Origin: a virus
Taxonomy: Duplodnaviria; Caudoviricetes
Length of the DNA stretch: 54,549 bases
IMG/VR virus record: IMGVR_UViG_3300011126_000071
Coordinates: 1 to 54,549 of that record
Strand: one strand, 5' to 3'
In this document: positions 5,352 to 49,512 of the stretch, piece after piece
Layout of the letters: every line of letters begins with the position of its first letter
Position numbering within the stretch: position 1 is the stretch's first letter
Notes under the pieces: generated by a model
Seen by the model: the letters and a program-made list of their open reading frames with translations, nothing else
The model's database searches: none
What the model was told of the DNA's origin: nothing
Translations under genes and position numbers: made by a program

Positions 5352-5380
5352 GTTTTTAGTCTTATTTGGTAATAAACGCA

Positions 5381-5388
5381 TATTTATA
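5381..5388 (+). promoter_or_regulatory. Putative late promoter TATTTATA
   Basis: 12 nt before the terL ATG at 5401. Confidence 0.7.
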
Positions 5389-5400
5389 ATAAAAAAGAAT

Positions 5401-7511: not shown

Positions 7512-9563
7512 ATGGCTAAGAAGAAACTTACAGTCTTTCAGAGAATGAATAAAATGTTTGGACCAGATGGTGTTAATGTACCAAAAGACCAAACAAATAG
7601 ATATTCAATAGGGCGTGGAGAATTATTGAAAACAGATAATAAAGCAGACTATGAAGCGGCTAAACTACAGGCACAACAAGCTAAGTATCTTGGTGGTCAA
7701 TGGAAAAAGGTTGATAATGAATTATTTCAAAAGTCAATTCATTATGAAACAACTCGTATTGGTTCTTATTCTGATTTTGAGAATATGGAGTTCTACCCAG
7801 AAATCGCAGCTGCTTTGGATATAATGATGGAAGAGGCTACAACCGTTAATGATAAGGGTGAGGTTATAAACATTTATTCAGATTCAAAAAGGGTTAAAAA
7901 AATACTTAAAGATTTATTTCATAACAGATTAGATATTCATACATCATTACCAATGTGGACAAGAAACACTTGTAAATATGGTGATGATTTTGTATTTTTA
8001 AATATTGATGATAAGGTTGGTGTTGTTGGGGCTAGACAAATGCCTAACTTCGAAATGGAAAGAAGAGAAGGTAGTGTCTATGATGCTATTTCTAGACAAC
8101 ACGCAGTTGGTGAAGAAGATGCTGACGGTAAGGTTAAGTTTTATTGGAAAGGTAGAGATATTGAATTTTCATCTTGGCAAATTGCTCACTTCCGTTTATT
8201 GGGTGATGATAGAAGATTACCTTACGGTACATCTGTATTAGAGAAGGCTAGGAGAATTTGGAAACAATTATTATTATCTGAGGATGCAATGCTTATCTAC
8301 AGGGTGACAAGAGCACCAGAGAGAAGAGTCTATAAAATATATGTTGGTAATATTGATGATGAAGATGTTCCAGCATACGTAGATGAAATTGCTAATAGAT
8401 TTAAACGTTCACCAGTTATTGACCCACAGACAGGTCAAATTGATTTGAAGTATAATCAAATGGCAAATGACCAAGATTTCTTTATTCCAGTTAGAAGTGA
8501 GGATGCTCCTAACCCAATTGATACATTGGCTGGGGCGGCTAACCTTGACCAAATTGCGGATATTGAATATCTTCAAAAGAAATTATTTACAGCACTTAGA
8601 GTTCCTAAGTCTTTCTTAGGGTTTGAAGATGCTGTTGGTGAGGGTAAAAACCTTGCATTACAAGATATTAGATTTTCTAGAACTGTAAATAGAATTCAAC
8701 AAGCCATGCTTATGGAGTTGAATAAGATTGCTATCATTCATTTATACATCTTAGGATTCGAAGAAGAATTAGATAACTTCACACTGTCACTTAATAACCC
8801 ATCAGTACAAGCGGAAATGCTTAAGGTTGAACACTTACAGGCTAAGATGACACTTTACAAGGATTCTGTTAATGATGCTGGTAATGGATTTGGTGCTATG
8901 AGTATGACTAAGGCTAAGAGAGAAATTCTTGGTTGGTCTGATGATGAAATCAAACAAGACCTTCTTGAACAAAGAATGGAGAAAGCAGCAGCAGCTGAAC
9001 TTGAGAATACTGCTAACGTTATTAAGAACACTGGTATGTTTGATAAGGTTGATAGAATCTATGGTGACATTGAGATTGCTAAACAAGGTGGTGCTGCCGA
9101 AGGTGAAGGTGAAGATGCCGAAGGTGGTGGTCCATCTGGAGGTGGAGGCGGTGGCTTCGGAGGTGGTGGCTTCGGAGAAGAAGACTTAGACTTTGGTGAA
9201 GAAGGTGGTGCAGAAGATATTGAAGGTGCACCAGAAGGTGATGAGACTGTTGATGTTGGTGGTGAAGAAATTAGTGCTGATGATTTAGGTGGTGGGGAAC
9301 CTACTGAGGAATCACTTAAAAGAGTTGATAAACTTTTAACCGAACAAAAAGCATTACTTAAGGGTAAGCAAGAGGCTAGGGTTATTAAGAATCAAAAGAC
9401 TTATTTCGATAGACTTTCTGAATCAATAAAAAGTGATAAAAAGCCTAATGTTATCAGAGAAAAGATATACGATAAGAACCTAAAGATTAATGAAGATGTT
9501 AACAATATGATTGGTGATATTGATACTATGATTGATGGCTTAGAAAAGGATATTGACCAATAA
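7512..9563 (+). CDS. Portal protein (T4 gp20-like) with long acidic Gly-rich C-terminal extension
   Basis: EDAMLIYRVTRAPERRVYKIYVGN, DFFIPVR and DIEYLQKKLFTALRVPKSFL are gp20-family motifs. Confidence 0.95.
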   Translation: MAKKKLTVFQRMNKMFGPDGVNVPKDQTNRYSIGRGELLKTDNKADYEAAKLQAQQAKYLGGQWKKVDNELFQKSIHYETTRIGSYSDFENMEFYPEIAAALDIMMEEATTVNDKGEVINIYSDSKRVKKILKDLFHNRLDIHTSLPMWTRNTCKYGDDFVFLNIDDKVGVVGARQMPNFEMERREGSVYDAISRQHAVGEEDADGKVKFYWKGRDIEFSSWQIAHFRLLGDDRRLPYGTSVLEKARRIWKQLLLSEDAMLIYRVTRAPERRVYKIYVGNIDDEDVPAYVDEIANRFKRSPVIDPQTGQIDLKYNQMANDQDFFIPVRSEDAPNPIDTLAGAANLDQIADIEYLQKKLFTALRVPKSFLGFEDAVGEGKNLALQDIRFSRTVNRIQQAMLMELNKIAIIHLYILGFEEELDNFTLSLNNPSVQAEMLKVEHLQAKMTLYKDSVNDAGNGFGAMSMTKAKREILGWSDDEIKQDLLEQRMEKAAAAELENTANVIKNTGMFDKVDRIYGDIEIAKQGGAAEGEGEDAEGGGPSGGGGGGFGGGGFGEEDLDFGEEGGAEDIEGAPEGDETVDVGGEEISADDLGGGEPTEESLKRVDKLLTEQKALLKGKQEARVIKNQKTYFDRLSESIKSDKKPNVIREKIYDKNLKINEDVNNMIGDIDTMIDGLEKDIDQ

Positions 9564-9587
9564 GTGTTTTTTTAAACCCTATAAACA

Positions 9588-9595
9588 TATTTATA
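9588..9595 (+). promoter_or_regulatory. Putative late promoter TATTTATA
   Basis: 15 nt before the ATG at 9611. Confidence 0.7.
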
Positions 9596-9610
9596 TAAAA
9601 ATAGTATACA

Positions 9611-10384
9611 ATGCAAAACTTCGGTAAAATAAAAAATGCGTTCAATGATATCCTTGCTGAATCAATTGTTGATAAGAGCGTGGAGAAAAGAAAGATTGTT
9701 AAAAGATTTATTAGAGCAATTAGTGAAAGTAAAATTCTTAAAGCACAATTCTTGATTTATAATAATATTGAGACTAGGGTTGATGAGAATCAATTCTCTG
9801 CCAATCTATTCATAACTGAGAATATTAACTTGTTAAACAAATTCAAGAAAGAAGAAATTGTATCTGAAAACAACAAGTTAATTAACATGTCTCAAATGGT
9901 TAAACGTAGATTAGAATTAGATTATGATAAGAAAGAATTACACGAATCAATATCATCTTTAATCTTTAATAAGAAAACAGCATCTACTGTTCAAGAGGCA
10001 ACTGATTCTCGTATGAATGTAATTAAGTACATTAATGAGAATAAGGCTAAGGTGATTTTAGAAGCACCAGAAGTGCCAACTAGTATGTTGGCTAATTTAG
10101 CGGTTGATAAGTTCAATGAGAAGTATGCTAATTTAACAGAAGATGAACACAAGGTTCTAAATGTTATTTTAGAATCAGACAACAACGAAAGTAGAGAGAT
10201 TGTATTTAACGAAACAATTAAGAGTTGTATTGACTCCGTTAATAGTAGATTAAAAGAATCTACAAATAAAGAAAAATTACTTAATGTAAAAGAAAGATTA
10301 CTTAGTACAAGTTTTATGAGTGAAACATTCTCAGAAGATATTGTCAAGTTATTAGACTTGAAAAGAACCCTAACAATAGAATAA
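9611..10384 (+). CDS. Helical putative prohead core/assembly protein
   Basis: 257 aa after the portal gene; KFNEKY motif and many (I/L/V)xE sites. Confidence 0.6.
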   Translation: MQNFGKIKNAFNDILAESIVDKSVEKRKIVKRFIRAISESKILKAQFLIYNNIETRVDENQFSANLFITENINLLNKFKKEEIVSENNKLINMSQMVKRRLELDYDKKELHESISSLIFNKKTASTVQEATDSRMNVIKYINENKAKVILEAPEVPTSMLANLAVDKFNEKYANLTEDEHKVLNVILESDNNESREIVFNETIKSCIDSVNSRLKESTNKEKLLNVKERLLSTSFMSETFSEDIVKLLDLKRTLTIE

Positions 10385-10394: not shown

Positions 10395-10694
10395 ATGGAA
10401 TTAGAATCATTAGTACAAATATTTGGTGGTGCTGGTGCTACATTCTATGTTATGTGGTTATGGCTTAAAAGTGTTCAAACAGAAAAGAAAGATTTACAAG
10501 TTAAATTAGATAACGTAGAAGAGAAGAGGATTGTGGAGTTAAGAGAAATGTTACCATTATTAACAGATGCCTCTAAAGGACTTCAAGATGTGATTAAAGC
10601 CAATCTTGAAAGTAATACTGAGGTGGTTAAAGAAATAAAATCTCATATTGATGAGAAAGTTACCGAAATATCAGAAAAATGCAAAAAGAAATGA
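10395..10694 (+). CDS. Single-TM coiled-coil protein (holin-like or membrane anchor)
   Basis: N-terminal hydrophobic helix LVQIFGGAGATFYVMWLWL, then a heptad coiled coil and a basic C-terminus. Confidence 0.6.
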   Translation: MELESLVQIFGGAGATFYVMWLWLKSVQTEKKDLQVKLDNVEEKRIVELREMLPLLTDASKGLQDVIKANLESNTEVVKEIKSHIDEKVTEISEKCKKK

Positions 10695-11083
10695 TGTCTA
10701 CCTTACAGTTCACAATAGCTAAATTAGAATTAAAACAATTAGAACTTATTGATAAATTATCAAAAAGAAATAAAGATGAATACATTATTCGTTGTATTAC
10801 TTGTCCAGAAACAAATGAGTTTATAACGGTTAATGGTGATTGGAATAAGGTTCTAGGGTTCAACGAAAAGGATTGTATTGGTAAATCGATATTTGATTTT
10901 ATGGCACCATATGAATTAGGTAGAGCTAAATTAGAAGCAATAAAAATGAAAGATAGTGAAGAATTTGATTCATTTGTTTGTGATATGGTAGATAAAAACG
11001 GTTTACCAGTTAGTGTTGATTGGAAGGCTAAATATTACCCAGACATCAATGCTACCGTATCAATAGGTAGAGTTAAGATATAG
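10691..11083 (+). CDS. Stand-alone PAS-domain protein
   Basis: FITVNGDWNKVLGFNEKDCIGKSIFDFMAP...DKNGLPVSVDWKA...VSIGR fits the PAS pattern (VN..LG..EE.IG....F.HP; KDG...V). ATGA overlap with the upstream stop; alternative start at 10679. Confidence 0.85.
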   Translation: MMSTLQFTIAKLELKQLELIDKLSKRNKDEYIIRCITCPETNEFITVNGDWNKVLGFNEKDCIGKSIFDFMAPYELGRAKLEAIKMKDSEEFDSFVCDMVDKNGLPVSVDWKAKYYPDINATVSIGRVKI

Positions 11084-11085: not shown

Positions 11086-11117
11086 TTTGACTTATTGAGA
11101 TATTATCATTATACTTG
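11086..11117 (+). promoter_or_regulatory. Host-type promoter (TTTG-N20-TATACTTG)
   Basis: One mismatch to Bacteroidota TAnnTTTG with 20-nt spacing; precedes the ATG at 11137. Confidence 0.55.
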
Positions 11118-11136: not shown

Positions 11137-11586
11137 ATGATTAAAAAAGGAAAAGAAATTAAAATGGGAAAAACTTATAAAGATTATAAAGTTATTTCGG
11201 GAACAGTAGATTCCAAAAACCCAACAAGTGTTTACATAAACATATCAGCATGGGGAGAACCAACAGATGAGAACATAGAACAATATGTTAGTATCATTAG
11301 TTTACTAAAGAAACATGTTAAGAAACATATACATGATAATCTACCAATGACATTCAATAGAACTAGGACCATTGTAGATTTAGATATGAGAGAGTCTGGG
11401 ATATCATTTGGTAAGAGAAGTTTTATGAATTGTGAGATAACATTATATCAAAACCAACATAGTAGAAGTAATTCTATTCTTATGTCAACAGAACTAAAAA
11501 AGATTATGGGTAACATAACCGATAAATTAATTAAGGAAGTATTTGATGAATATCAACACTTTAAATTTCATAAAAATAAAAAATAA
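11137..11586 (+). CDS. Hypothetical phage protein
   Basis: GTVDSKNPTSVYINISAW and IVDLDMRESGISFGKRSFMNCEITLY blocks. The ATG at 11137 is preferred because the track start lies inside the promoter. Confidence 0.7.
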   Translation: MIKKGKEIKMGKTYKDYKVISGTVDSKNPTSVYINISAWGEPTDENIEQYVSIISLLKKHVKKHIHDNLPMTFNRTRTIVDLDMRESGISFGKRSFMNCEITLYQNQHSRSNSILMSTELKKIMGNITDKLIKEVFDEYQHFKFHKNKK

Positions 11587-11659: not shown

Positions 11660-12373
11660 ATGTCAAGAAGATTAAACGAAGATATTAAATTACTTAAGGC
11701 TGGCCAAACTGGTTTCGGGGTCATGATTGAAAATGATGCGGGTTATATCGACCCAAATGATTCAAGGAACCAAGAGTTTGTAAATGAGGTTACTAAAATG
11801 GCCTCTGGTGGTATACCAATGGTTGAACCATTAGTAGTTACTGTAGTATTACAGAAGTGGGGAGTTAAAAATAGAAATGGTAGAGTATACCCAGAACGTA
11901 TTCTTAAGAATCAAGCTAAGGCTTACAACGAATTAATACAAAACAAATCAGCGTTAGGTGAATTAGACCACCCAGAGTCATCAATTATATCTGGTGATAG
12001 AGTATCACATAATATCACTAAAATATGGTGGGAAGGTAAAACACTTATGGGTGAGATGCAAATCAATACCACTTTAGGTTTTATTAATATGGGTATTTGT
12101 TCAACTAAAGGTGATGAGGTTGCTAACATGCTTAGACATGGTTGGAGAATTGGAGTATCATCTAGAGGTGTTGGTACATTAGAAGAGGATTATGAAGGTA
12201 ATGCAATTGTACAAGATGATTTTGAATTGATAGGGTGGGATGTTGTTACGGCACCATCGACACCAGGTTCTTGGATATTTGCAAATTCTAAAGATGCCCA
12301 ACCATTTACTGAATCAAGAATTATTGAAAACAAAGATTTAGATGAGGGGTTAGATAATTTCTTAATGGATTAA
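11660..12373 (+). CDS. Prohead core protein protease (T4 gp21-like)
   Basis: KNRNGRVYP, ALGELDHPE, GVSSRGVG and WDVVTAPSTPGS motifs. Confidence 0.95.
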   Translation: MSRRLNEDIKLLKAGQTGFGVMIENDAGYIDPNDSRNQEFVNEVTKMASGGIPMVEPLVVTVVLQKWGVKNRNGRVYPERILKNQAKAYNELIQNKSALGELDHPESSIISGDRVSHNITKIWWEGKTLMGEMQINTTLGFINMGICSTKGDEVANMLRHGWRIGVSSRGVGTLEEDYEGNAIVQDDFELIGWDVVTAPSTPGSWIFANSKDAQPFTESRIIENKDLDEGLDNFLMD

Positions 12374-12510: not shown

Positions 12511-13974
12511 ATGGCTGAAAAAAAGAAATCAATTATTGATGAAGCGGTATTGGATGCGAAAAGAATCCAAGAAGCTTTAAACGCCAACACGAAAGAAATA
12601 CTTCGTTCGATAGCGAAAGAAGAAATTGATGACCTAGTGAAAGAATCTCTTAATGAGTTTGAAGAAGAAGATGTTGACGATGAAGAAGAAGTTGAAATGG
12701 ATGTAGATATGGATGCGGAAGCACCTGTTGATGCAGAAGTTGAAGCAGATGACGAATTCGCTGGCATTGACGATGTAGGTGGTGAAGAAATGGGTGACTC
12801 CGAAGAAGGTGACTTAGAAATGAGTGACGAAATGGGTATGGATGCAGAAGCATCGTACGGAGACGAAATGGATATGACAACTGCATCAGATGATGAAGTT
12901 ATCGCTGTATATAAGAAATTAACAGGTGATGACGAGATTCAAATTGTAAGTAACGAAAATGGTGACATTGAATTAACGGTAAACGAACCAGGTGAATTTG
13001 TGATTAAAGCAAATGATGGTGGTATGGATGCTGAACCAGAAATGGGAATGGAACCAGAAATGGATGCTGAAATTGGAATGGATGATGAAATGGGTATGGA
13101 TGCTGAACCAGAAATGGGAATGGAACCAGAAATGGATTCTGAAATGGGAATGGATGCTGAACTTCCGATGTCTGACCTTGAAGGTGAGGAAGAAGAAGAA
13201 GAAGAAACTTACGATGAGAATGTAAACGAGGTTGTATATGAAATTGCAATAGCGGAAATGGAAGACATTGAAAGTGTTAAAGCTCCTGTAGGAAATGAAA
13301 ATGACGACAACTGGGCTGGTGATAATCTTGAAGGTGGGTTTGATGATGAAGGTCAGAACGGAACTGGAGATTCTCATGGAGAACACATAATGGAAGAAGA
13401 AGTAAACGAAGAAGACGTTAACGAAGAGGCAATCGAAGAAAAGATTCAAGTAGGTAAAGGCAGAAATGTTACTACTAAGAAGACTGAAATCGAAGGTGCT
13501 GGTGCGAAAGCAAACAAAGTTAAGGCTCCTAATGTTACTACTGAATACGTATCTAAAGCAGACTACGATAAATTACTTAGAGAAGCGAAATCTCTTAAAG
13601 CGAAAACAGTTGAAATGACTGCTACACTTAAAGAGCAAAGAACAATGTTAGGTAAAGTGGTTGTATTTAATACTAATCTTACAAATGTAACTAGATTATT
13701 CACTGAGCATTCAACAACTAAAGATGAAAAGAGACAAATCATTGAAAGATTTGATGAGGAAGTTTCTAACATTCAAGAATCTAAAAAACTATTCAAATCT
13801 ATTGAAAAAGAATTAGCAAATAAAAAGCCAATTTCTGAATCAGTAGAAGGGAAATTTTCCAAGGAAAAATCAAGCAGTACTTCAAAATTAAACGAAAGCA
13901 CCGCATATGTAGACCAAGGAACTAAAAGAATTATGGATTTAATCTCAAGAGTTGAGAATAAAGATAAATTCTAA
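12511..13974 (+). CDS. Prohead scaffold/core protein
   Basis: Very acidic, coiled-coil C-terminus, between protease and capsid genes, many xxE cleavage-like sites; TATTTATT variant at 12430-12437. Confidence 0.85.
   Translation: MAEKKKSIIDEAVLDAKRIQEALNANTKEILRSIAKEEIDDLVKESLNEFEEEDVDDEEEVEMDVDMDAEAPVDAEVEADDEFAGIDDVGGEEMGDSEEGDLEMSDEMGMDAEASYGDEMDMTTASDDEVIAVYKKLTGDDEIQIVSNENGDIELTVNEPGEFVIKANDGGMDAEPEMGMEPEMDAEIGMDDEMGMDAEPEMGMEPEMDSEMGMDAELPMSDLEGEEEEEEETYDENVNEVVYEIAIAEMEDIESVKAPVGNENDDNWAGDNLEGGFDDEGQNGTGDSHGEHIMEEEVNEEDVNEEAIEEKIQVGKGRNVTTKKTEIEGAGAKANKVKAPNVTTEYVSKADYDKLLREAKSLKAKTVEMTATLKEQRTMLGKVVVFNTNLTNVTRLFTEHSTTKDEKRQIIERFDEEVSNIQESKKLFKSIEKELANKKPISESVEGKFSKEKSSSTSKLNESTAYVDQGTKRIMDLISRVENKDKF
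13021..13160 (+). repeat. Intragenic ~72-bp tandem duplication (GMDAEPEMGMEPEMD[A/S]E[I/M]GMD)
   Basis: GGTATGGATGCTGAACCAGAAATGGGAATGGAACCAGAAATGGAT occurs at 13021 and 13093. Confidence 0.9.
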
Positions 13975-14010: not shown

Positions 14011-15786
14011 ATGTCACAATCACAATTATTAAATTCTGGACAAGTTGGGAACATTGGTTTAAACCACATGAAAGCGGTTAGACAACAAACTCAACAAAAA
14101 TGGAACTCTTTAGGATTCTTAGAAGGTCTTAAAGGTCATGTTAAGGAGAACATCGCTCAATTATATGAGAACGAAGCATCTTACTTATTAAACGAAGCTA
14201 CTTCTGCGGCTGATTCATCTGGTTCTTTCGAGACAGTTGTATTCCCAATCGTAAGAAGAGTATTCTCTAAATTATTAGCTAACGATATCGTTTCTGTACA
14301 AGCTATGAATATGCCAATTGGTAAATTATTCTTCTTCGTACCTCAAACTTCATCTAGAGTTAATGCTGCTGGTGAGGCTGGTAACGTTCACGTTGACCCT
14401 CAATACTCTGCTCACACATCTATGTCTGACCAATTACCAGACTGTGTTGTAGGTGCTGGTTGTAACCCAACAGTATTCGAAGCTAAAAACTTATACGATA
14501 TCTATTACAATGATGGATTATTCGATAACTCTAAAGGTACTGCTACAATCACTATGATGAACGCTGTTCCTGTTGCTATGGATTCTAACGGAAACTTTTC
14601 TGAAACGACTTCTTATGCTACAGCAACTGACGGTACTGTTAGAAATGGTATGTTAAGAGTATCTGGATTCTCTTCTACAAACAAAGGTAGATTAACAGGA
14701 CCAGATGGTAATGAAATGGATACTGAGTCTTTCTTAGCTTCATTAAAAGTTACTTCTGCTAATGCTGTTATTGACCCAGATGGTAATACAATTATCGCTG
14801 CTGGTGCTGAGGTACCATTCAGATTAGTTACTCAAAAGTATGGTAAAGGAATCGTTGCTTATGACGATATCTGTGATGCTGCTGGTGAGTTATACATTGA
14901 CTTAGACTTAAGCCACCCAGTTGATTCTAACGGTACATCTACATTTGATGGTTACGTTGGTGCTGGAACAGGTTTAACTGTTGATACAACAGCGTTTGAT
15001 GCTTCTTGGGCAACTTATGCTAGTCTTGAATTAGAAACTGAAATGGGAGAAGTATCTTTCAAACTTGATGAAGTTGTTGTTTCTGTTGAAGAAAGAAAAT
15101 TAAGAGCTACATGGTCTCCAGAATTAGCACAAGATGTTAGTGCATTCCACAACATTGATGCTGAGGCTGAATTAACAGCTATGTTATCTGAACAAGTTGC
15201 TGCTGAAATCGATAGAGAAATCTTAAGAGATTTAAGAAAAGCTGCTGCATGGACTCTTAGATGGGATTACAACGGTTGGAGAAAAGCTTCTACTGCTGCA
15301 AGTCCATATACACAAAAGGATTGGAACCAAACTTTAATTACTAAAGTTAACCAAATCTCTGCTCAAATTCACAAGGCAACACTTAGAGGTGGAGCTAACT
15401 ACATCGTAGTTTCTTCTGAAATCTCTGCTGTGTTCAATGACCTTGAGTACTTCCACGTAAGTGATGCAAGTCCAGAGCAAGACCAATATAACATGGGTAT
15501 TGAAAGAATCGGTTCACTAGGTGGAAGATTCCAAGTATACGCTGACCCTTATTCTCCATGGTACTCTATGATTATCGGACACAAAGGGAAGTCGCTTCTT
15601 GACACAGGATATATCTACGCACCGTACGTACCGTTACAACTTACGCCTACAATGTACAATCCATTTAACTTCGCACCAGTGAAGGGGATTATGACAAGAT
15701 ACGCTAAGAAAGTTGTTAACAACAGATTCTACGGTCATGTTAGATGTGATGGTGTTCCTCACTTCAACCTTAATGAATTAAGATAG
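14011..15786 (+). CDS. Major capsid protein (T4 gp23-like)
   Basis: FPIVRRVF...DIVSVQAM, RKLRATWSPELAQD, AEIDREIL, GYIYAPYVPL and KGIMTRYA motifs. Confidence 0.96.
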   Translation: MSQSQLLNSGQVGNIGLNHMKAVRQQTQQKWNSLGFLEGLKGHVKENIAQLYENEASYLLNEATSAADSSGSFETVVFPIVRRVFSKLLANDIVSVQAMNMPIGKLFFFVPQTSSRVNAAGEAGNVHVDPQYSAHTSMSDQLPDCVVGAGCNPTVFEAKNLYDIYYNDGLFDNSKGTATITMMNAVPVAMDSNGNFSETTSYATATDGTVRNGMLRVSGFSSTNKGRLTGPDGNEMDTESFLASLKVTSANAVIDPDGNTIIAAGAEVPFRLVTQKYGKGIVAYDDICDAAGELYIDLDLSHPVDSNGTSTFDGYVGAGTGLTVDTTAFDASWATYASLELETEMGEVSFKLDEVVVSVEERKLRATWSPELAQDVSAFHNIDAEAELTAMLSEQVAAEIDREILRDLRKAAAWTLRWDYNGWRKASTAASPYTQKDWNQTLITKVNQISAQIHKATLRGGANYIVVSSEISAVFNDLEYFHVSDASPEQDQYNMGIERIGSLGGRFQVYADPYSPWYSMIIGHKGKSLLDTGYIYAPYVPLQLTPTMYNPFNFAPVKGIMTRYAKKVVNNRFYGHVRCDGVPHFNLNELR

Positions 15787-22816: not shown

Positions 22817-22830
22817 AAAATTGTTTTATA

Positions 22831-22838
22831 TATAAATA
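22831..22838 (-). promoter_or_regulatory. Putative late promoter TATTTATA (minus strand)
   Basis: 14 nt before the ATG at 22816, immediately after the stop of the sigma-like gene. Confidence 0.7.
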
Positions 22839-23624
22839 TCACGCATATGGATTTTCATCAAAACCATTCTCAAGTCCATCGAACTTTAAGAATTCATACA
22901 TAACCTTATATCTCTTCATTGCAACTCTAATATCCTTTGTTGATAGACTGGTGTAATTACGCATAGTTTCAAGAACTTGGTTCTTGTTGTATTTTGCACC
23001 ACCTTTCATATCATCAAATACGGTCTCCCATTGCCCTAATATTTCAATCAAACATCTACCAACCTTAATTTCATTTTCAGTTAGTTTCTTTTTGTCTGGA
23101 TAATCTTGTGTGATTTCAACTTCAACTTCGATGATAATTTTGTTGATGAAATCCGCTAAGATAAGTTTTTCACTATCTAGTGTATAACTATAATCTTCAT
23201 TCGACTCTATAGAATCGTAGTTGTCTTCAAAAGACGAGAACTGTCTAAGTCCTCTATCATCTTTTTGAAGCATTCCTATCAAATAATTCTTACAAATTGT
23301 ACCGTAGTACGAGTAAGCTTTCTTTCCCTGTGTATGGTCGAACTTGTCGGCCTTGGTTATTAGAAACGATATTGTGTCTGTATGTAATTCCTCAAACGTA
23401 AATGACTTTCTGTAAAGTTTATACGTTCTTATGATTGACTCAACCATTTTTTCGATTGGGTGTCTAAGGAATTTATTATAGATATGGTTTCTCTCTATTG
23501 TGTCATCTGACTCTAAAAATCTTACAACTGCTTCTTCTTGTTCTGGGCCGAAATACAAATCATTTTTCCTTTTGCGACCCCTTTTTTTAGGGGCCTCTTC
23601 GGATTTGTTTTCAGTTTTTCCCAT
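22839..23624 (-). CDS. Phage RNA polymerase sigma-like factor (T4 gp55-like, late transcription)
   Basis: YF..EQEEAVVRF...KMVESII...ITKADKFDHTQGKKAYSYYGTICKNYLI resembles sigma region 2 as seen in gp55-type factors (KFD....AF.YF..I..N). Confidence 0.7.
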   Translation of the reverse strand: MGKTENKSEEAPKKRGRKRKNDLYFGPEQEEAVVRFLESDDTIERNHIYNKFLRHPIEKMVESIIRTYKLYRKSFTFEELHTDTISFLITKADKFDHTQGKKAYSYYGTICKNYLIGMLQKDDRGLRQFSSFEDNYDSIESNEDYSYTLDSEKLILADFINKIIIEVEVEITQDYPDKKKLTENEIKVGRCLIEILGQWETVFDDMKGGAKYNKNQVLETMRNYTSLSTKDIRVAMKRYKVMYEFLKFDGLENGFDENPYA

Positions 23625-24419
23625 TTAGTTTATTTCAGAATCATATGTTAGTTTTCTGTCATGACTATGGTAGTATTCCTTCTTTGCTTGAGCTAACCAC
23701 CACTTAGCCTCTACTGGGTCAAGTTCTTCTCTGTAGTTAAAGAATAAAGAACCTTCTCTTTGGTTAACGTGTTTGTAACCAAATTTTGGTATAACAAATA
23801 TTCTATTATCTTTGAATGCCATTCTAAGTAAAAATTCATATACAAAGGTAAGTTTAACACTTGATTTAAGTCCACCGAACTCTTCAATTAATGATTTCTT
23901 CATAACAACACCATCAATATTAAAATTTTGGTATGCTAACAATGCACTAATATCTAAAACACCCATTTCATCTGAAAAACTTTGAGCCCATACTGCTTCA
24001 TTGGTAAGACCAACAAATGCTTGTTTAGGGTCAACATCTACAATAATTGGCATGAACATGTCAACATCTGAATGTGCACTTCTGTATTCAACAACATTCT
24101 TAAACCATATCTTAGAATATTCATCATCCAATTCCAAGATACTAATCCATTCTGTTTTAGTATTTTCAACACCAAAGTTAATTTGAGATGGGAAATCCGT
24201 TTCACCATCATTATCAATAACCTTAACGATGTCTTTTATTTTACCAAAGTCATATTTCTTTAGTTCTTTTGATACATCACTACCTTTAGGTACAATAACA
24301 AGTACTGTATCTGGTAATGTTAATTGTTCCTCAACACTTTTAATTGCGTTAGCGAATAAAGGTCTAGTTGAATCTGTTAATTCGTGTACTGGTAATAGTA
24401 CTGTAATTTCTGTTTTCAT
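23625..24419 (-). CDS. Glycosyltransferase family 2-like protein
   Basis: ITVLLPVHE, INFGVENTKTEWISILELDDEY (GT-A fold, variant DxD motif). Confidence 0.8.
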   Translation of the reverse strand: MKTEITVLLPVHELTDSTRPLFANAIKSVEEQLTLPDTVLVIVPKGSDVSKELKKYDFGKIKDIVKVIDNDGETDFPSQINFGVENTKTEWISILELDDEYSKIWFKNVVEYRSAHSDVDMFMPIIVDVDPKQAFVGLTNEAVWAQSFSDEMGVLDISALLAYQNFNIDGVVMKKSLIEEFGGLKSSVKLTFVYEFLLRMAFKDNRIFVIPKFGYKHVNQREGSLFFNYREELDPVEAKWWLAQAKKEYYHSHDRKLTYDSEIN

Positions 24420-24421
24420 TT

Positions 24422-25567
24422 TTATGCGTTTGTTTCTACGTTAGTTTCTTTAGGTTTTATCATTGAAGTAAATTCTTTTTTTCTATTGGTAACAAGTGTA
24501 CCATAAACTTCTTCAATTGCCTTTCTTTGTTTATCCATTGAATATTCACCATTTGTAGTTTCCATACTGTCAAGAATATCTTGTGGTACTGAATCTTCAA
24601 ACCAAACCTTCATAAATGTTCCAACTAATTCTGGAATGTTAATAGTTGTATTAGTCCAAACACCATTATTTAATAATGTTGTTTCACCATTTTCTGTTGT
24701 ACTTTCCATCCATTCTGGAATCATATTTGGAATTTTACCAATTACTGGTGTTCCAGATTTCATAGCCTCAAGTGGGAATGTTCCGAAACCAGATTGGTCA
24801 TCAATCCATACCGCCAAACAAGACTTACCTAATTCTTCTGCAAATTGTGCTTTTGGAATACCTCTAAGTTCTTTGAATGTTACAAATTTATAGATTGGGA
24901 ATTGTAAGTAGAACGCATTAGCGATTTTCTTAGCATCACCATGATTCCTAGTAAGGATTGTAACTACTGGTGTTTTAGGTTTCTCACTTGGTTTAAACAT
25001 GTCAGAAATCCCTACTGGAATAATATGTGTGTTAATACCTTGGAATAGACTAGTAACATAGTTAGCTTGCTTTTGTGATGTTGTAATAACATCATAGAAA
25101 CCAAAATCAGTGTGCCATTTCTTACCGATTGGTAACAACTCTAACAAATAATCATAACTTTGTGAGAAAACAATCTTCTTACATGGGAATTGTTTTACTT
25201 GGTCCATGATATTAGCGAAAATTTCTGGAATGATAATAAAATCAGAAGGGTTCACATTTAATTGTTGTCCTTCTATTGAGATGTGAGGTAGGTTTGCATA
25301 TTCTTCACCTAACCAATCAGCAATACCCATACTAGTTTCATCACCACGTAATTTATAGTCATCTTTCTCGTGCATGATAAATGCTTTATATCCCAATTCA
25401 TTTAAAGTTTTTACGTGTTCGTAAATGTTAGCGACACCAGCAACTGGGTTACCTTTAGTGTCAAGTGTAAAGAAGTAAAATGAAAAATCTTTATTATCTA
25501 ATTTAGATAATAATTCACCGATTTGTTCTTCTTGTGTTTTTACAGGTTTGTTTGTTTCTTCTGCCAT
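24422..25567 (-). CDS. GT-B (family 4-like) glycosyltransferase
   Basis: GVANIYEHVKTLNELGY, IIIPE, GFGTFPLEAMKSGTPVIG. Confidence 0.85.
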   Translation of the reverse strand: MAEETNKPVKTQEEQIGELLSKLDNKDFSFYFFTLDTKGNPVAGVANIYEHVKTLNELGYKAFIMHEKDDYKLRGDETSMGIADWLGEEYANLPHISIEGQQLNVNPSDFIIIPEIFANIMDQVKQFPCKKIVFSQSYDYLLELLPIGKKWHTDFGFYDVITTSQKQANYVTSLFQGINTHIIPVGISDMFKPSEKPKTPVVTILTRNHGDAKKIANAFYLQFPIYKFVTFKELRGIPKAQFAEELGKSCLAVWIDDQSGFGTFPLEAMKSGTPVIGKIPNMIPEWMESTTENGETTLLNNGVWTNTTINIPELVGTFMKVWFEDSVPQDILDSMETTNGEYSMDKQRKAIEEVYGTLVTNRKKEFTSMIKPKETNVETNA

Positions 25568-25587
25568 TTTTTTTTATTTAATTATTA

Positions 25588-25953
25588 TTATATTTCTTTT
25601 AATATTCCATACTCTATTAAAGTATTGAAAGCCATTTTAAATGATATTGTAGTTTTACTCATTGCAAGTTCAAAACCTAAACTATCATCTAATTCTTCGT
25701 TATAAGTGAAAAGTATTTCTAAACACATTCTAAGTAAGTCATACTTTGGTCCATCAACTTCTGGAATCTTATCATATTCTCTAGTTGTTATGGTTGTACC
25801 AATTGGGGTACCCGACTCGTCATAATTGATTTTAGTTTCAGTTTCAATTGTTTTATCTGAATCTGTTTTCATTGTTAATAAACTACTAAATGAGTCTAAA
25901 TCAATCATAAATAATTGACCACCTATATCTATTAAATTATCTCTTTTGTTCAT
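25588..25953 (-). CDS. Hypothetical phage protein
   Basis: ATG at 25953 follows the upstream stop; C-terminal FKMAFNTLIEYGILKEI. Confidence 0.65.
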   Translation of the reverse strand: MNKRDNLIDIGGQLFMIDLDSFSSLLTMKTDSDKTIETETKINYDESGTPIGTTITTREYDKIPEVDGPKYDLLRMCLEILFTYNEELDDSLGFELAMSKTTISFKMAFNTLIEYGILKEI

Positions 25954-25954
25954 A

Positions 25955-26566
25955 TTAAATTTCTTCAAAATCTGCTGTCTTAGTTCTAAGTATTCTTTCT
26001 CTTAATTCGATATCATTCATAAATTCGAATAAATCATCTATTTCAAAGTCAGCCTTAACGTCTTTATTGTAAGGTGCGTTAACCTTTACTGAAATCTTAC
26101 CAGATGGTTTAGCTTCTAATGCTGTTGGACATGCAGTTATTAATACATCAACACCATCCCATTTATCCGCATAAGCAGTGACAAACCTAATATTTGGTGC
26201 TTTACAAAGTGTTTTAGATAAAAACCAGAAAGTACTTGGTATACTTGCTGCTGCTTCTCTACTAACCAACTCTATTTCATGTTCATCTTCATCTCTCATT
26301 TCAAGTAAAAAATGATTAAAGTGTGTCATTATGTTATTATGAGTTTGGTCACCATGACCAAACAACTCTAAAGCTGCCTCAACATACATAAATTTCTTCA
26401 TGTCCATCTCATCTTTAAAATCAACTAACTCGTGATTCATAAGATTAAAATCAGTGATTGGGTTTTTCTTAAGGTCGATTTTAACGCCTCTGTACTTTTC
26501 ATATGTATAAGCAAATTGACTTATAAAATCTCTCAGTACTTCATTTAATGTAATTCCTATTTTCAT
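25955..26566 (-). CDS. HAD-fold 5'(3')-deoxyribonucleotidase-like protein with degenerate motif I
   Basis: MKIGITLNEVLRDF (canonical IGIDxDGVLxDF), DVLIT and VNAPYN. Confidence 0.65.
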   Translation of the reverse strand: MKIGITLNEVLRDFISQFAYTYEKYRGVKIDLKKNPITDFNLMNHELVDFKDEMDMKKFMYVEAALELFGHGDQTHNNIMTHFNHFLLEMRDEDEHEIELVSREAAASIPSTFWFLSKTLCKAPNIRFVTAYADKWDGVDVLITACPTALEAKPSGKISVKVNAPYNKDVKADFEIDDLFEFMNDIELRERILRTKTADFEEI

Positions 26567-26602
26567 GATTTAAAAATATTATAAAATCGTTATAAGTAAA
26601 CC

Positions 26603-27496
26603 TTACCAAGTAAAATTCTTCTTAAACCATATTTTTATTTTTCTAATTAGTTTAGATTTAGGTTTTTTATTTTTAATATAACGTGGTTCAACATTAATAA
26701 CATCTGATTTCTTAACCCCACTATTATTTGGTAGATACCCTTCCTTAATTATCCTAATTTCTGGTGGGGTTGGTTTAACTAAATTCTTAGGTTTGTAATT
26801 TTCAAGAATTCTTGAAATCAATGGATTTCTAACAATTTCAGATTCATTAAATTCAATGACACCTATTTCGTCTAATTTACCATGTTTACTAATTGCATCA
26901 TAAAGACCACTTTGTCTAAAATCACCATACCTATCAGATTGGTCAAGGTCACCAGAGATAATAAATTTACTACTAAAACCAATTCTAGTTAGAAGTGTTT
27001 TCATTTGATTTGGTGACATATTCTGTGCTTCCTCCATAACAAGTATAGTATGGTCAATGGTCTTACCTCTAATGAAACCTAACCCACCAACTTCAACTAT
27101 CCCAGCACCTTCTAACTCAACCCTTTTGGTTATACCTACGATTTTATCAATTATATCAATTGATGGTGCAACGAATGGGTCTAGTTTCTCACGAATAGAA
27201 CCTGGTATGAAACCTAATTTCTCTTCTGCCTCAACCGCTGGGTTGATTAAAATTATCTTATTGTATTGATTTGAAGTATTTTGTAGTAATTCAATCGCCC
27301 TAGCAATAGCCACATAACTCTTACCAACACCAGCTGGACCAGTCGCTAAAACTATTTCCTTATCGGTGATTAGATTAGCAAAAACCTTTTGTTTCTGATT
27401 CTTACACTTTAATCTGTGTCTAGTTGGTAGAATTATACTTAACGGTGAGGTAGGAGTTTCTTCTACAACTTTTGTTGTACTTTTTCTTTTCGTCAT
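26603..27496 (-). CDS. phoH: PhoH-family ATPase
   Basis: GPAGVGKSY, EKLGFIPGSIREKLDPF, FIRGKT, EEAQN, LLTRIG, GDLDQSD, IVRNPLI. The ATG at 27496 directly after gmd is preferred. Confidence 0.93.
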   Translation of the reverse strand: MTKRKSTTKVVEETPTSPLSIILPTRHRLKCKNQKQKVFANLITDKEIVLATGPAGVGKSYVAIARAIELLQNTSNQYNKIILINPAVEAEEKLGFIPGSIREKLDPFVAPSIDIIDKIVGITKRVELEGAGIVEVGGLGFIRGKTIDHTILVMEEAQNMSPNQMKTLLTRIGFSSKFIISGDLDQSDRYGDFRQSGLYDAISKHGKLDEIGVIEFNESEIVRNPLISRILENYKPKNLVKPTPPEIRIIKEGYLPNNSGVKKSDVINVEPRYIKNKKPKSKLIRKIKIWFKKNFTW

Positions 27497-27497
27497 A

Positions 27498-28493
27498 TTA
27501 TCTAGTTGAAGGTTTACCTTGAAGAACATCCATCCAATGGTCACACATTTCATGCATCAATGCTTCGAATGTATAATCTGGTTTCCAGTCAAAGGTTTCT
27601 CTTAGTTTAGTTGAATCTCCTTTTAAATAAGGTAATTCTTCTGGTCTAAGGAATTTAGGGTTTTGTGTTACATAATCCTCATAATTCAATCCTAGGTATG
27701 AGAAAACAACCTTACACATTTCTCTAACTGAATGTGTTTCCATTGTTGATACAACGAAGTCATCAGCAACATCATGATTTATAATCTTATGCATTGCCTT
27801 CACATAATCCTTTGAGTGACCCCAATCTCTATAAGAGTCCATATTACCCAATTCTAATTTATCTTGTAAACCTAATTTAATACTACATGCAGCCTTAACC
27901 ACTTTGTTGGTTACGAAGTTACTACCCCTTCTTGGTGATTCATGATTAAATAGAATACCATTTACAGCATGTAAACCATAAGCACGTCTGTAGTGTCTTA
28001 CAACATTGTAACCAAATACTTTAGAACACCCATAAGGTGATACTGGATTCATAATAGTACTTTCTCTTTGGAAGTCGTCATCATCAACTGTTAAACCAAA
28101 CATCTCAGATGATGATGCTTGATAGAATTTAGCCTTTGGACAAATTCTCCTATACGCTTCTAATATATTAATGACCCCAACAGCGTTTGTTTGTACTGTA
28201 AATTGTGGGATATCAAAACTAACCCTAACATGACTTTGTGCACCAATGTTGTAAATCTCATCTGGCATAATTTCAGTTAGTAATCTTTCTATTGATGTCT
28301 GGTCTAATAGGTCACCATAGTGTGTGAATAATTTACCACTCTTAAATGCTTCACCTAATCTTGCTGATTGATTTTCAGATGTTGAATTTCTTCTTACCAT
28401 CCCATGAACTTCATATCCAAGGGATAATAAATACTCTGTTAGATACGAACCATCTTGCCCGTTAATACCTGTAATAAATGCTTTTTTATTCAT
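27498..28493 (-). CDS. gmd: GDP-mannose 4,6-dehydratase
   Basis: AFITGINGQDGSYL, AQSHVRVSF, YQASSSEMFG, PVSPYGCSK, GILFNHESPRRG, RDWGH. Confidence 0.97.
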   Translation of the reverse strand: MNKKAFITGINGQDGSYLTEYLLSLGYEVHGMVRRNSTSENQSARLGEAFKSGKLFTHYGDLLDQTSIERLLTEIMPDEIYNIGAQSHVRVSFDIPQFTVQTNAVGVINILEAYRRICPKAKFYQASSSEMFGLTVDDDDFQRESTIMNPVSPYGCSKVFGYNVVRHYRRAYGLHAVNGILFNHESPRRGSNFVTNKVVKAACSIKLGLQDKLELGNMDSYRDWGHSKDYVKAMHKIINHDVADDFVVSTMETHSVREMCKVVFSYLGLNYEDYVTQNPKFLRPEELPYLKGDSTKLRETFDWKPDYTFEALMHEMCDHWMDVLQGKPSTR

Positions 28494-28496
28494 TCT

Positions 28497-28760
28497 TTAT
28501 TTTATTTTTGTTTTATTAGTTGATAGAGGTAAACGTCTATATATTCCTTTACCGTCTGGTGATTCATATACTGACATTGTTGTGTCGAATACTTTACCAC
28601 CATTTTCTCGTGTTACGATTAATACTGGTCCATCTTCGTTAACGTTCTCGTCAACATAAGTAACCGTTTTATTTAAAATGTCTGATTCGAATAATTTGGT
28701 AAATGGAACCAATGGTTCACCATGACCATAACTTACCGTATCCCATACTTGATATTTCAT
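28497..28760 (-). CDS. Hypothetical protein
   Basis: 87-aa ORF packed between the aminotransferase and gmd. Confidence 0.6.
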   Translation of the reverse strand: MKYQVWDTVSYGHGEPLVPFTKLFESDILNKTVTYVDENVNEDGPVLIVTRENGGKVFDTTMSVYESPDGKGIYRRLPLSTNKTKIK

Positions 28761-28761
28761 A

Positions 28762-29364
28762 TTATTTGTTTTTAAAAATTTTCATTTGTGTTAAATCTGG
28801 CCAATCAGTCGATACCCATTGTCTAGGTTCTGTTTCTATTGCATCTTTTAACTTATCTAGACCTTTTTGTGCTGTTTCTGGTGTCATATAATAATGGTAA
28901 CCCATAGTTTCTATGTTTTGTTCTCTCCAAGGTGTGTTTGGTAGTCTACCATCGTATGACATCTTCTTTAGCATTTTAGCATCATCTTCGTTGTCACATA
29001 ATATCATACCACCTCTACCAAGACTTAAATGTTTTTGGAATTGGAAACTTAGGGACATCATAGTATTTGGAATATAACTGTCTTTCTTCCAAAGAACTGC
29101 CGCATCAATTATTCTTTTATCATCATAATTAAGAGTATAAAAGTTTTTCCAATCGTCATTACGCCACTCTAGTTCTATACCTAACTTATCAGCCAAGAAT
29201 GGTACTGATAAATAGGTTCTTTTTGGTACGTTTATCTTTGTTGTGTTGGTTAGTCTTAGACATAATTCTATCCCGTGAGTACAGCAATCAACAGCTACTG
29301 CGTATGGAGCACCAAAGAACTTGGCTATCTCATTTTCGAATTCGGTTATTGTATTAAAATCCAT
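28762..29364 (-). CDS. Compact DegT/DnrJ/EryC1/StrS-family PLP sugar aminotransferase
   Basis: FENEIAKFFGAPYAVAVDCCTHGIELCL, IIDAA, LSFQFQKHLSLGRGGMI (PLP lysine), GYHYYM. Confidence 0.85.
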   Translation of the reverse strand: MDFNTITEFENEIAKFFGAPYAVAVDCCTHGIELCLRLTNTTKINVPKRTYLSVPFLADKLGIELEWRNDDWKNFYTLNYDDKRIIDAAVLWKKDSYIPNTMMSLSFQFQKHLSLGRGGMILCDNEDDAKMLKKMSYDGRLPNTPWREQNIETMGYHYYMTPETAQKGLDKLKDAIETEPRQWVSTDWPDLTQMKIFKNK

Positions 29365-29410
29365 ATTTTATTTTAATAATACCGATAATTGTTAATTAAG
29401 TAAATATTAC

Positions 29411-30112
29411 TTATCCATCAATTTCATTTTTTGTAACTCTTTCTTCTGAAATGTTATAACTTTTAATTATATTGATGTAATTTTCATTATCTATTGGGTT
29501 TGAAAATAAACCACCAGTAAAACTATGTCTACTTATATTGATATCCCAATTGTCAAAATATTTACCACTAACTGTTTGATTAAAAGAATTATCCCCAAAG
29601 TTAACACCAATAAAACAAACCTTAAAATTTTCAAATCCATGTACAACCTTTAATGTGTCCACAATTTCTTCCATATCTGAAAGTCCTATATCATTTTCCC
29701 ATTTGTTATATGTGTAGTTAAATAAAGTATTATAATTCTTTAGTTTCTTGAACCTTTCCTTACATTTGACAAAATGATTATAATCTTTCTCAGTGTTTAA
29801 ATCGTGATGTGGAAATATTGCACCATGAACATCCGTATGGTCAACATCATAAAACTTATTACTAGTCCTAACTGACGTTGGTAGTTGTGTACCAGTCTCT
29901 GGGTCAAGTGTCATTTGATTACAAGTTAAACTAAAATTATTTTCTGGTTTAAGTATCTCATTAAAATCATCCGCTAAAATGTGTTTGATGTTCTTAACGT
30001 TTAATGTATTCATAAAGTCAAAAAAACCAGAAAATTCTCTATATTTGTAGTGTTTTAATATTTCAGAATTCTGACATCTACTACCTAGACTATGTATTGT
30101 ATTATATTTCAT
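29411..30112 (-). CDS. DUF1796-like (putative papain-like) protein
   Basis: SLGSRC...YREFSGFFDF...FPHHD matches the SLG..C/PFDW/F.H pattern of this family. Confidence 0.55.
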   Translation of the reverse strand: MKYNTIHSLGSRCQNSEILKHYKYREFSGFFDFMNTLNVKNIKHILADDFNEILKPENNFSLTCNQMTLDPETGTQLPTSVRTSNKFYDVDHTDVHGAIFPHHDLNTEKDYNHFVKCKERFKKLKNYNTLFNYTYNKWENDIGLSDMEEIVDTLKVVHGFENFKVCFIGVNFGDNSFNQTVSGKYFDNWDINISRHSFTGGLFSNPIDNENYINIIKSYNISEERVTKNEIDG

Positions 30113-34361: not shown

Positions 34362-34362
34362 A

Positions 34363-34770: not shown

Positions 34771-34773
34771 TTA

Positions 34774-44553: not shown

Positions 44554-44567
44554 AATTATACTTTTTA

Positions 44568-44599
44568 TATAAATATAAGGAACTATGGGAATATTTATA
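44568..44599. promoter_or_regulatory. Back-to-back divergent late promoters
   Basis: TATAAATA at 44568-44575 (TATTTATA on minus, 14 nt from ATG 44553) and TATTTATA at 44592-44599 (16 nt from ATG 44616). Confidence 0.78.
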
Positions 44600-44615
44600 A
44601 TAAAACATATTAATT

Positions 44616-49495: not shown

Positions 49496-49512
49496 ATAAA
49501 ACAACTTTAATT

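Follow-up and report, generated by a model that had tools for sequence, protein, structure and literature searches.

A predicted membrane protein and a putative stand-alone PAS protein encoded by a probable accessory cassette in the head operon of a T4-like jumbo phage

The 54,549-nucleotide stretch analysed here (record IMGVR_UViG_3300011126_000071; hereafter the window) is a 54.5-kb virus genome fragment with an estimated completeness of ~16%. In its head operon, between the genes for the portal and the prohead protease, two overlapping genes encode a predicted membrane protein of 99 amino acids (aa), termed tm99, and a putative PAS protein that lacks an output domain. Comparison with related loci indicates that this pair is very probably an accessory two-gene cassette of large aquatic phages, 'moron'-like and moved horizontally, which in this T4-like jumbo phage occupies a variable slot of the late head operon and probably has no part in head morphogenesis. 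We lean towards the view that the two proteins act together at the membrane, and among the conceivable outputs lysis timing ranks first, as a tentative assignment. For the explanation as a whole, combining the mobile cassette with a membrane mechanism in which lysis timing comes first, we see an even chance.

PAS domains are the commonest cellular sensor modules, and to our knowledge no role for a PAS domain in a phage life cycle has been established. No phage PAS/membrane-protein pair is described in the full-text literature searched, a body in which subscription journals are mostly outside coverage. Likewise, the term 'PAS' has no occurrence in a jumbo-phage comparative review, and its two word-start matches in the moraphage paper (PMC12619734) lie in the reference list alone. 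Here, a PAS domain is apparently tied to a small membrane protein within a cassette that jumbo-phage lineages gain, lose and share. Should the pair indeed tune lysis or exclusion by host state, it would represent a compact, transferable timing device and a clean test case for phage sensing of the host.

Pairing of the tm99 and PAS genes

Both genes are genuine and under purifying selection, because intact orthologues of both occur in every related locus that covers them (dozens of metagenomic loci) and the ratio of nonsynonymous to synonymous substitution rates (dN/dS) is low. It amounts to 0.10-0.17 for tm99 (four close pairs) and to 0.24 for the PAS gene (one close pair; ungapped comparisons with loci L005 and L008 were left out, as indel differences make these values unreliable). 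The loci derive from a PAS-seeded scan of IMG/VR (26 loci) and from a scan of viral and metagenome contigs seeded with a tm99 relative. In each of the 33 distinct junctions, the PAS gene directly follows the tm99 gene, the two overlapping by 16-35 nucleotides (nt) in 18 of them and separated by a spacer of 3-18 nt in 15. In addition, three loci contain a single gene of the pair, each being cut by a contig end.

An earlier reading based on the letters of the window alone (hereafter the sequence-only reading) had described the pair as a two-part sensor linking host state to lysis or assembly timing, and had named neighbourhood conservation as a check, which the 33 junctions bear out. This constant adjacency, together with the frequent start-stop overlap, the joint transfer and the joint loss described below, argues for a joint function of tm99 and the PAS protein. 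Hence, the two-part unit stands, given the adjacency, the joint second context and the joint loss in locus L070, whereas the link to assembly timing does not. The translational coupling by an ATGA sequence, likewise proposed, is present at 10691-10694. However, an in-frame ATG located 12 nt upstream, at 10679, yields an MQKE start that is common to most relatives and is therefore the likely start of the PAS gene, giving a protein of 134 aa and an overlap of 16 nt with tm99. Conservation within the pair peaks in three segments, namely the hydrophobic helix of tm99 (mean column conservation 0.91), a motif in its tail (0.88) and the N-terminal helix of the PAS protein (0.82).

Optional presence between portal and protease

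The location of the pair between portal and prohead protease was confirmed by Pfam matches of both neighbours (Table 1). Whether or not the pair is present, the portal gene is followed by orf257 in every related locus that spans the slot, and orf142 precedes the protease gene in loci with and without the pair. A protease-seeded scan yielded 19 loci, and where orf257 and orf142 were both seen, the pair was present in seven and absent from eight. The slot is empty in L070 (97 nt), L080 (59 nt) and L083 (65 nt), and in L078/L079, L081, L082 and L084 it is filled by another gene of 131-138 aa, unrelated to the pair, for which three of four tested members gave sub-threshold Cupin_2 matches (E 3e-4 to 1.5e-3). 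Since an unrelated gene fills it in sister lineages, the slot between orf257 and orf142 is a cargo site.

The closest comparison is provided by L070, in which portal and protease are 91% and the capsid protein 87% identical to those of the window. The flanks of L070 and the pair-bearing locus L056 share 90% DNA identity over 982 nt on the left and 624 nt on the right, and between them L056 comprises 687 nt (the pair) as opposed to 35 nt in L070. The two sequences match again from the PAS stop codon onwards, immediately ahead of a sigma-70-like stretch that precedes orf142. Together with the empty or differently filled slots in sister lineages, this is the pattern of an accessory insert. The presence in all relatives sharing the head module that marks a core head gene was not found, as eight loci, all of them fragments, lack the pair in the slot.

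In a maximum-likelihood tree of orf257 and orf142 with 30 distinct rows (duplicates, loci without full orf257 and those with fewer than 100 aligned orf142 residues, including L078, L079 and L084, were left out), L070 is sister to L056 with a support of 99/100, deep within the pair-bearing group. The other four pair-less rows fall on the opposite side of the tree, so that at least two changes of state are required. These results support that the pair was lost together in L070. Neither gene was found elsewhere on the pair-less records, which are 3-18% complete, so that the rest of these genomes could hold the pair; a tm99 profile detected tm99 in four of four pair-bearing records.

These observations bear on the alternative that the pair encodes head-assembly factors, with tm99 tethering the portal or prohead initiation complex to the inner membrane, a task in which the portal chaperone gp40 takes part in T4, and the PAS protein serving as a prohead-core or chaperone partner. 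The map position, between portal and protease, is that of T4 genes 67 and 68, the products of which are of similar size (80 and 141 aa), and co-transcription with orf257 behind a gene-start motif is likely. Moreover, tm99 is 57-65% identical where the portal is 65-68% identical, i.e. about as conserved as portal and protease, and membrane-proximal prohead assembly is known, as stated in an excerpt of PMC7824862. However, the pair is absent from the slot in L070 and in seven further loci with the same head module, and the Flavobacterium phage immuto contains three unrelated genes between portal and protease, the pair not being there. Homology to T4 gp67, gp68 and gp40 was rejected (hhalign probabilities of 1.0%, 0.3% and 0.3%, respectively), the pair matched neither the gp67/gp68 PHROGs (phrog_1064, phrog_1049) nor any other head PHROG, and, in contrast to these T4 proteins, it is optional among close relatives. 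The pair is present, too, in a fragment with otherwise unrelated-looking genes (G004, see below), although T4 gene 40 itself lies among replication genes, so that this context does not exclude the reading. We consider a head-assembly function highly improbable, and the link to assembly timing is not borne out, as the pair is missing from the slot in the close relative L070 and in sister lineages. Thus, position between portal and protease alone does not justify naming genes 'head proteins'.

A second genomic context

The pair was also detected in the 38-kb fragment G004 (source of locus L017; ~13% complete; 28.1% G+C). The two proteins of L017 are 47% and 46% identical to those of the window, and their genes overlap by 19 nt. 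Here, the pair is surrounded by genes for cytidylyltransferase-like proteins, a nucleoside triphosphate (NTP) pyrophosphohydrolase, a family-B DNA polymerase, ribonucleotide reductase, a helicase, a primase and a single-stranded DNA-binding protein. Only two of the 36 G004 open reading frames (ORFs), the pair alone, match any of the 68 ORFs of the window, a count of little weight by itself, as the two fragments hold different modules. A 1251-aa protein of G004 matches a 462-kb uncultured huge phage (43%), Sphingomonas phage PAU, Tenacibaculum phage pT24 and phages of Chryseobacterium and Flavobacterium. Searches with this protein, the helicase and the two proteins flanking the pair returned nothing in the complete related genome G001, which are weak negatives. 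G004 apparently represents a different jumbo-phage lineage, and because it carries the pair among otherwise unrelated-looking genes, a joint transfer of both genes between two such lineages is probable.

The patchy occurrence of an accessory pair common to apparently different jumbo-phage lineages would also be in line with an exclusion or competition module, in which a cytoplasmic PAS sensor and an effector in the membrane would act against superinfecting or competing phages or change the host envelope. The analogy is with small membrane exclusion proteins of phages and with pairs of a sensor and a membrane effector such as lambda RexA/RexB; the two-gene build with a sensor-like and a membrane protein fits, and the conservation of the transmembrane helix of tm99 is far above the need of a passive anchor. 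However, the 5027 PADLOC defence models were matched by neither tm99 nor the PAS protein nor their L017 orthologues (0 families at E<=0.1), distant relatives gave sub-significant matches alone (E>=0.0045), and no homology to annotated exclusion proteins was found in PHROGs. Moreover, the expression signal ahead of the pair looks common to late structural genes, and exclusion genes are usually early. We therefore regard exclusion as an unlikely function.

tm99, a small protein with one predicted transmembrane helix

The sole hydrophobic stretch of tm99 comprises residues 6-24 (LVQIFGGAGATFYVMWLWL), for which the Kyte-Doolittle mean over 19 residues is 1.42, a borderline value (scale values of the standard table). 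Before this helix, 27 of 29 members have no K or R, and in every member two to six of them lie within the 15 residues that follow it. Based on the positive-inside rule, this charge distribution predicts an N-out/C-in topology with a cytoplasmic tail. The sequence-only reading had described a 99-aa coiled-coil protein with a single transmembrane helix; the ORF is real, and for the helix the hydropathy leaves the call borderline. The helix is the most conserved part of the protein and contains a small-residue G-x-A-G patch. The remaining 75 residues consist to 43% of K, R, D or E and end in KKK. This tail is apparently helical and two-part, with a proline break at LPLL and a C-terminal Cys that is near-invariant (24/29). 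Within the tail, residues 45-64 reach a mean conservation of 0.88 as compared to ~0.6 in the rest, which makes them a candidate docking surface. They include a conserved I-x-E48 of the (L/I)-x-E form considered as a T4-type protease site, and no such site is present in the N-terminal helix of the PAS protein.

The family is new and narrow: at E<=1e-3, 1.84 billion proteins yielded 16 representative clusters alone. The G-x-A-G...M-x-L-W-L helix is retained by the distant members, and the LPLL core recurs in P0028, P0029, P0032, P0039 and P0040. The genomic context of the distant relatives P0029 and P0037 was not found in viral, metagenome or genome contigs, and a contig search seeded with P0028 returned the close family alone. 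Likewise, no GenBank phage was matched when the region (blastn) or both proteins and their L017 orthologues (tblastn) served as query, apart from one chance match (E 0.4). In PHROGs, which include the T4 head and lysis families, the PAS protein had no match and tm99 matched one family of unknown function (E 0.0098). Comparison of the tm99 tail with Pfam and PDB by sequence gave coiled-coil-type noise alone (FlgN, stathmin, SNARE).

With 99 aa, one hydrophobic stretch and a charged hydrophilic C-terminus, tm99 has the build of a holin. No holin family was matched by tm99 in Pfam or PHROGs at E<=0.1, and a Pfam scan of the tm99 members revealed no holin or spanin family. Weak similarities were nevertheless obtained, the best PHROG matches across the members being to an Rz-like spanin family in six of 21 (best E 3e-4) and to a hemolysin family in five of 21, and one cluster of ESM look-alikes contains 10% Holin_BhlA members. 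The Rz-like matches, the N-terminal hydrophobic helix, the two-part helical tail with its proline break and the C-terminal Cys would suit an i-spanin-like or other lysis effector acting alone, with the PAS gene as a mere neighbour in a separate soluble role. This is opposed by the charges flanking the helix, which predict N-out/C-in, the opposite of an i-spanin, and by the downstream gene, the product of which has no signal or lipoprotein-like start and no hydrophobic N-terminus, and hence offers no o-spanin partner. In addition, the 33/33 adjacency, the start-stop overlap and the joint transfer and loss favour a joint function. Among the alternatives weighed here, a lone lysis effector is the least probable.

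The stand-alone PAS protein

The sequence-only reading had assigned a 'clear' PAS domain. The window protein itself remains below the Pfam gathering cut-offs of three models (PAS_9, 23.5 versus 27 bits; PAS, 20.7 versus 22.6; PAS_3, 19.6 versus 25.6), while at the family level the assignment is supported. Of 33 family members, 21 match PAS_3 at E<=0.01, the cut-off of this model is exceeded by the L017 orthologue (29.7 versus 25.6 bits), and the family profile matches a multi-PAS histidine kinase with a database-wide E of 1.9e-9. Moreover, the best ten of ten named clusters of look-alikes in the ESM Atlas are PAS (score 0.98), and bacterial single-domain PAS proteins of 111-143 aa resemble the protein most closely. 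In a sequence-profile comparison, the PDB yields 8px4, a diguanylate-cyclase PAS chain, as its best match, a weak one (E 0.049). An N-G-D-W motif and W115 are invariant in the PAS core.

The N-terminal helix (T-I-A-K-L-E-L-K-Q-L-E) precedes this core and is more conserved, with a mean of 0.82 as compared to 0.60 and an invariant or near-invariant A-K-L-E-L-K-Q-L-E. The protein contains no hydrophobic segment and is predicted to be cytoplasmic, because its hydropathy maximum is merely 0.55. In agreement with the sequence-only reading, no kinase or other output domain is attached: all 23 near-length relatives comprise 129-143 aa, and among proteins of 266-2000 aa no fused form was found, three bacterial multi-PAS proteins being matched. 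The CITC motif noted in the same reading is present in the window protein but not conserved in the family, as FIES, LIQS, VIMS or AITD replace it in relatives. Of the four cysteines, Cys39 occurs in 20, Cys42 in 16, Cys101 in 22 and Cys66 in 30 of 33 members, and none is invariant. A Cys-based redox or metal site is not supported, since CITC is not conserved across the 33 PAS members, and no cofactor motif or cofactor residues were recognised in the protein.

PAS domains are known above all as sensors of ligands, redox state and light. The pair could thus be a host-state sensor with a non-lytic output, in which a membrane-tethered PAS complex binds a small molecule or reads the energy state and adjusts host or phage metabolism. 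The similarity to bacterial single-domain PAS proteins and the nucleotide-metabolism genes neighbouring the pair in G004 would be compatible with this function. On the other hand, the PAS core is the less conserved part of the protein, the cysteines vary and no cofactor motif, output domain or known partner was recognised, which renders a host-state sensor with a non-lytic output distinctly unlikely.

The bacterial single-domain PAS proteins (PF08447, PF13426, PF00989) are like the PAS protein of the pair in signature, with N-G-D-W and a later conserved W, and likewise comprise 130-150 aa with an N-terminal cap helix and without an output domain. In contrast to them, the close family is known from phage contigs alone and is always preceded by the tm99 gene, and, as compared by sequence, its N-terminal helix is more conserved than the PAS core.

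A proposed membrane mechanism and lysis timing

In the mechanism that we propose, tm99 would insert in the host inner membrane via its conserved N-terminal helix in N-out/C-in orientation, and the small-residue face of this helix may mediate helix-helix contacts, either in self-association or with a host membrane protein. The charged helical tail would be displayed in the cytoplasm, where the co-translated PAS protein would dock through its conserved N-terminal helix onto residues 45-64 of tm99 and set or sense the state of the membrane protein. The output could be the control of a late membrane event, above all the timing of lysis; tm99 would then be a holin-like or lysis-modulating auxiliary, regulated from the cytoplasm by the PAS protein. 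Losing an accessory lysis regulator need not be fatal to a phage.

The lysis reading draws on the small size and highly charged tail of tm99, a build that is like that of LysF1b. As described in the portion of PMC13056207 consulted, LysF1b of mycobacteriophages is a genetically tested lysis protein with a single transmembrane domain and N-out/C-in topology that is required for efficient lysis. LysF1b-type proteins (92-150 aa) and tm99 are both small, with one N-terminal transmembrane domain of predicted N-out/C-in topology, basic residues after this domain and an extended, helical and highly charged cytoplasmic tail, and in both cases the gene is start-stop coupled to a partner gene (PMC13056207, same portion). 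However, LysF1b belongs to a lysis cassette beside endolysins and has an upstream holin with two transmembrane domains as its partner, whereas tm99 is followed by a soluble PAS protein and has no endolysin nearby. Moreover, the extracellular stub measures 5 aa in tm99 as compared to 22 aa in LysF1b (PMC13056207), and the likeness shown is one of build.

The concept of a soluble partner also has a precedent in T4, where soluble partners bind extramembrane parts of the holin; as outlined in the available part of PMC11413866, the antiholins RI and RIII bind extramembrane parts of holin T and set the time of lysis, the same concept as proposed here. The sequence-only reading had ascribed a GAF-like domain to the T4 holin, a term absent from PMC11413866. 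Unlike these proteins, tm99 and the PAS protein show no PHROG or Pfam match to the T, RI or RIII families. The T4 protein T is N-in with a large periplasmic domain; by contrast, tm99 is predicted to be N-out with a cytoplasmic tail.

Lysis genes are scattered in T4-like phages, as they are here. The window ORFs that were compared with Pfam include no lysin gene, and the Phage_lysozyme family had no match in four related records. G001 contains a single tm99 copy at 258.7 kb, and its best endolysin candidate (PG-binding plus Amidase_2) is located at 62.8 kb. Since this Amidase_2 candidate is without a membrane-protein neighbour, the lysis genes of G001 are scattered, as in T4.

Several observations weigh against the explanation that we favour. 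The transmembrane call of tm99 comes from borderline hydropathy and charge bias, and the protein matches no holin, antiholin or spanin family convincingly, nor any defence model. It is not located beside an endolysin gene, neither in the window nor in the complete genome G001, and if relatives do without the pair, tm99 cannot be the only holin of the clade. The pair-less records, L070 included, are such small fragments that the pair could lie elsewhere. As to the transfer, L017 is placed on a long, unplaced branch in the tree of the pair, which does not give the direction, the negative searches of G001 with G004 proteins are weak evidence, and the replication-gene setting in G004 would be an odd place for a late lysis gene.

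The proposed mechanism can be extended to a more far-reaching version, which we offer as a long shot. The stand-alone PAS protein might read a host metabolite, redox or energy state and, via its N-terminal helix, gate the oligomerisation of the single-pass membrane protein, thereby coupling lysis time or the exclusion of rivals to host physiology, in a device traded among unrelated jumbo phages of the same hosts.

The cassette as a whole recalls 'morons', i.e. extra genes between genes that are adjacent in related phages, a concept developed for lambdoid phages. The clean presence or absence between fixed neighbours, the alternative cargo in the slot and the occurrence in another lineage are 'moron'-like. 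In contrast to 'morons', no promoter or terminator of its own is evident for the pair in this clade, and it follows orf257 after a spacer of 10 nt.

Expression signals

The motif ATATTTATAWAAAA has eight matches at <=1 mismatch in the window as compared to 1.0 expected, and none of 100 shuffles reaches eight. In five measured cases (o280, terL, orf257 and the genes at 44616 and 49513) a gap of 7-12 nt lies between its end and the start codon, and the copies mapped against gene starts, before o280, terL, orf257 and the ORF at 44616, are intergenic. It is probably the late promoter or gene-start signal of this phage, distinct from the T4 late box TATAAATA, which does not occur below position 16000 and thus not in the head region. 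The sequence-only reading had placed the pair behind a late motif. This does not hold for the T4 box, and the phage's own motif (copy ATATTTATATAAAA) precedes orf257 and not the pair directly. Because that copy precedes orf257 and merely 10 nt separate orf257 from tm99, the pair is most likely expressed together with orf257 from the signal at 9587-9600.

A candidate sigma-70-like stretch, TTGACT-17-TATACT, is found just 3' of the PAS stop codon, and L070 and L056 contain the same stretch, behind the deletion point and behind the PAS stop codon, respectively. It marks the right edge of the cassette. In G004, the sequence ATATTTATATA, with a core as in the window motif, is located 5 nt before the tm99 start at 30747-30757 (L069:10747-10757) and is followed by GGAG. 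It is not significant, with two matches in G004 and 24 of 200 shuffles doing as well.

The head module and its surroundings

The record has a G+C content of 32.8%. The features of the head module and the signals described above are listed in Table 1.

Table 1. Features of the window around the tm99-PAS pair, and the alternative gene of the slot in related loci
Feature	Position	Strand	Basis or remark
Large terminase	5350/5401-7212	+	head module
82-aa ORF	between large terminase and portal	+	head module
T4-type portal	7512-9563	+	PF07230, E 2e-76
Gene-start or promoter-like motif ATATTTATATAAAA	9587-9600	+	10 nt before orf257
orf257, helical protein	9611-10384	+	fixed left flank of variable slot
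tm99, 99 aa, predicted bitopic membrane protein	10395-10694	+	ORF; 21-member alignment A2; dN/dS
tm99 hydrophobic stretch, residues 6-24	10410-10466	+	sole hydrophobic stretch
Conserved tm99 tail motif, residues 45-64	10527-10586	+	R-I-x-E-L-[KR]-E-M-L-P-L-L-x-D-A-S-K-G-L-Q
Putative PAS gene, 134 aa from MQKE start	10679-11083	+	130 aa if started at 10691
Predicted N-terminal amphipathic helix of PAS protein, residues 8-28 (TLQFTIAKLELKQLELIDKLS)	10700-10762	+	most conserved part
PAS core, ~residues 41-128	10799-11062	+	PAS_9 covers 41-112, PAS 46-128 of the 134-aa form
Candidate sigma-70-like TTGACT-17-TATACT	11087-11115	+	consensus scan 10/12; just 3' of PAS stop, before orf142
orf142, 149 aa from ATG 11137	11137-11586	+	fixed right flank of variable slot
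Prohead serine protease, T4-type, S77	11660-12373	+	PF03420, E 4.9e-27; phrog_207, E 1.1e-40
Acidic scaffold-like protein	12511-13974	+	position in head module
gp23-type major capsid protein	14011-15786	+	PF07068, E 9.6e-71
Copies of motif ATATTTATAWAAAA	795-808, 5380-5393, 9587-9600, 22826-22839(-), 44563-44576(-), 44591-44604, 47564-47577, 49487-49500		<=1 mismatch
Alternative slot gene	L078:4082-4489, L081:4088-4489, L082:2296-2691, L084:2594-3010		between orf257 and orf142

For orf257, no family was matched in Pfam or PHROGs. The capsid protein is at most ~42% identical to proteins of GenBank phages, its best matches being an uncultured huge phage, Microcystis phage Mel-JY01 and the Flavobacterium immuto phages, and the related record G001 is a complete genome of 287,855 bp with terminal repeats. 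Because of this capsid distance and the size of the complete relative, the source virus is a jumbo phage whose head is distantly T4-like. With a T4-like structural core, PhoH and many glycosyltransferases, it recalls in gene content, by likeness alone, the aquatic 'moraphages' as portrayed in the accessible part of PMC12619734.

The protein in the scaffold position is extremely acidic and contains repeated units of the M-G-M-D-A-E-P-E-M type, with no Pfam family match. Further downstream, a long run of sugar-modification genes extends over 23625-38850 (-) and includes genes for GDP-mannose 4,6-dehydratase, a DegT-type aminotransferase fragment, several GT2 enzymes, GT10/GT11 fucosyltransferase-like and NodZ-like enzymes and a methyltransferase. 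PhoH is encoded at 26603-27553 and dUTPase at 39004-39591.

Inserts of ~0.6-1.3 kb interrupt the protease or portal match in several relatives (L002:6750-8148, L008:2339-3701, L023:1521-4439, and in L014, L016, L021, L025 and L026), and in L026 extra DNA spreads out the genes from terminase to capsid. These split matches and spread head genes suggest the presence of introns, inteins or homing-endonuclease genes in head genes of several relatives. Finally, a second terminase-like stretch is located directly upstream of the full-length large terminase gene in three loci (L005:3-659, L006:3-659, L007:2-676); it is 44% identical and covers residues 74-300.

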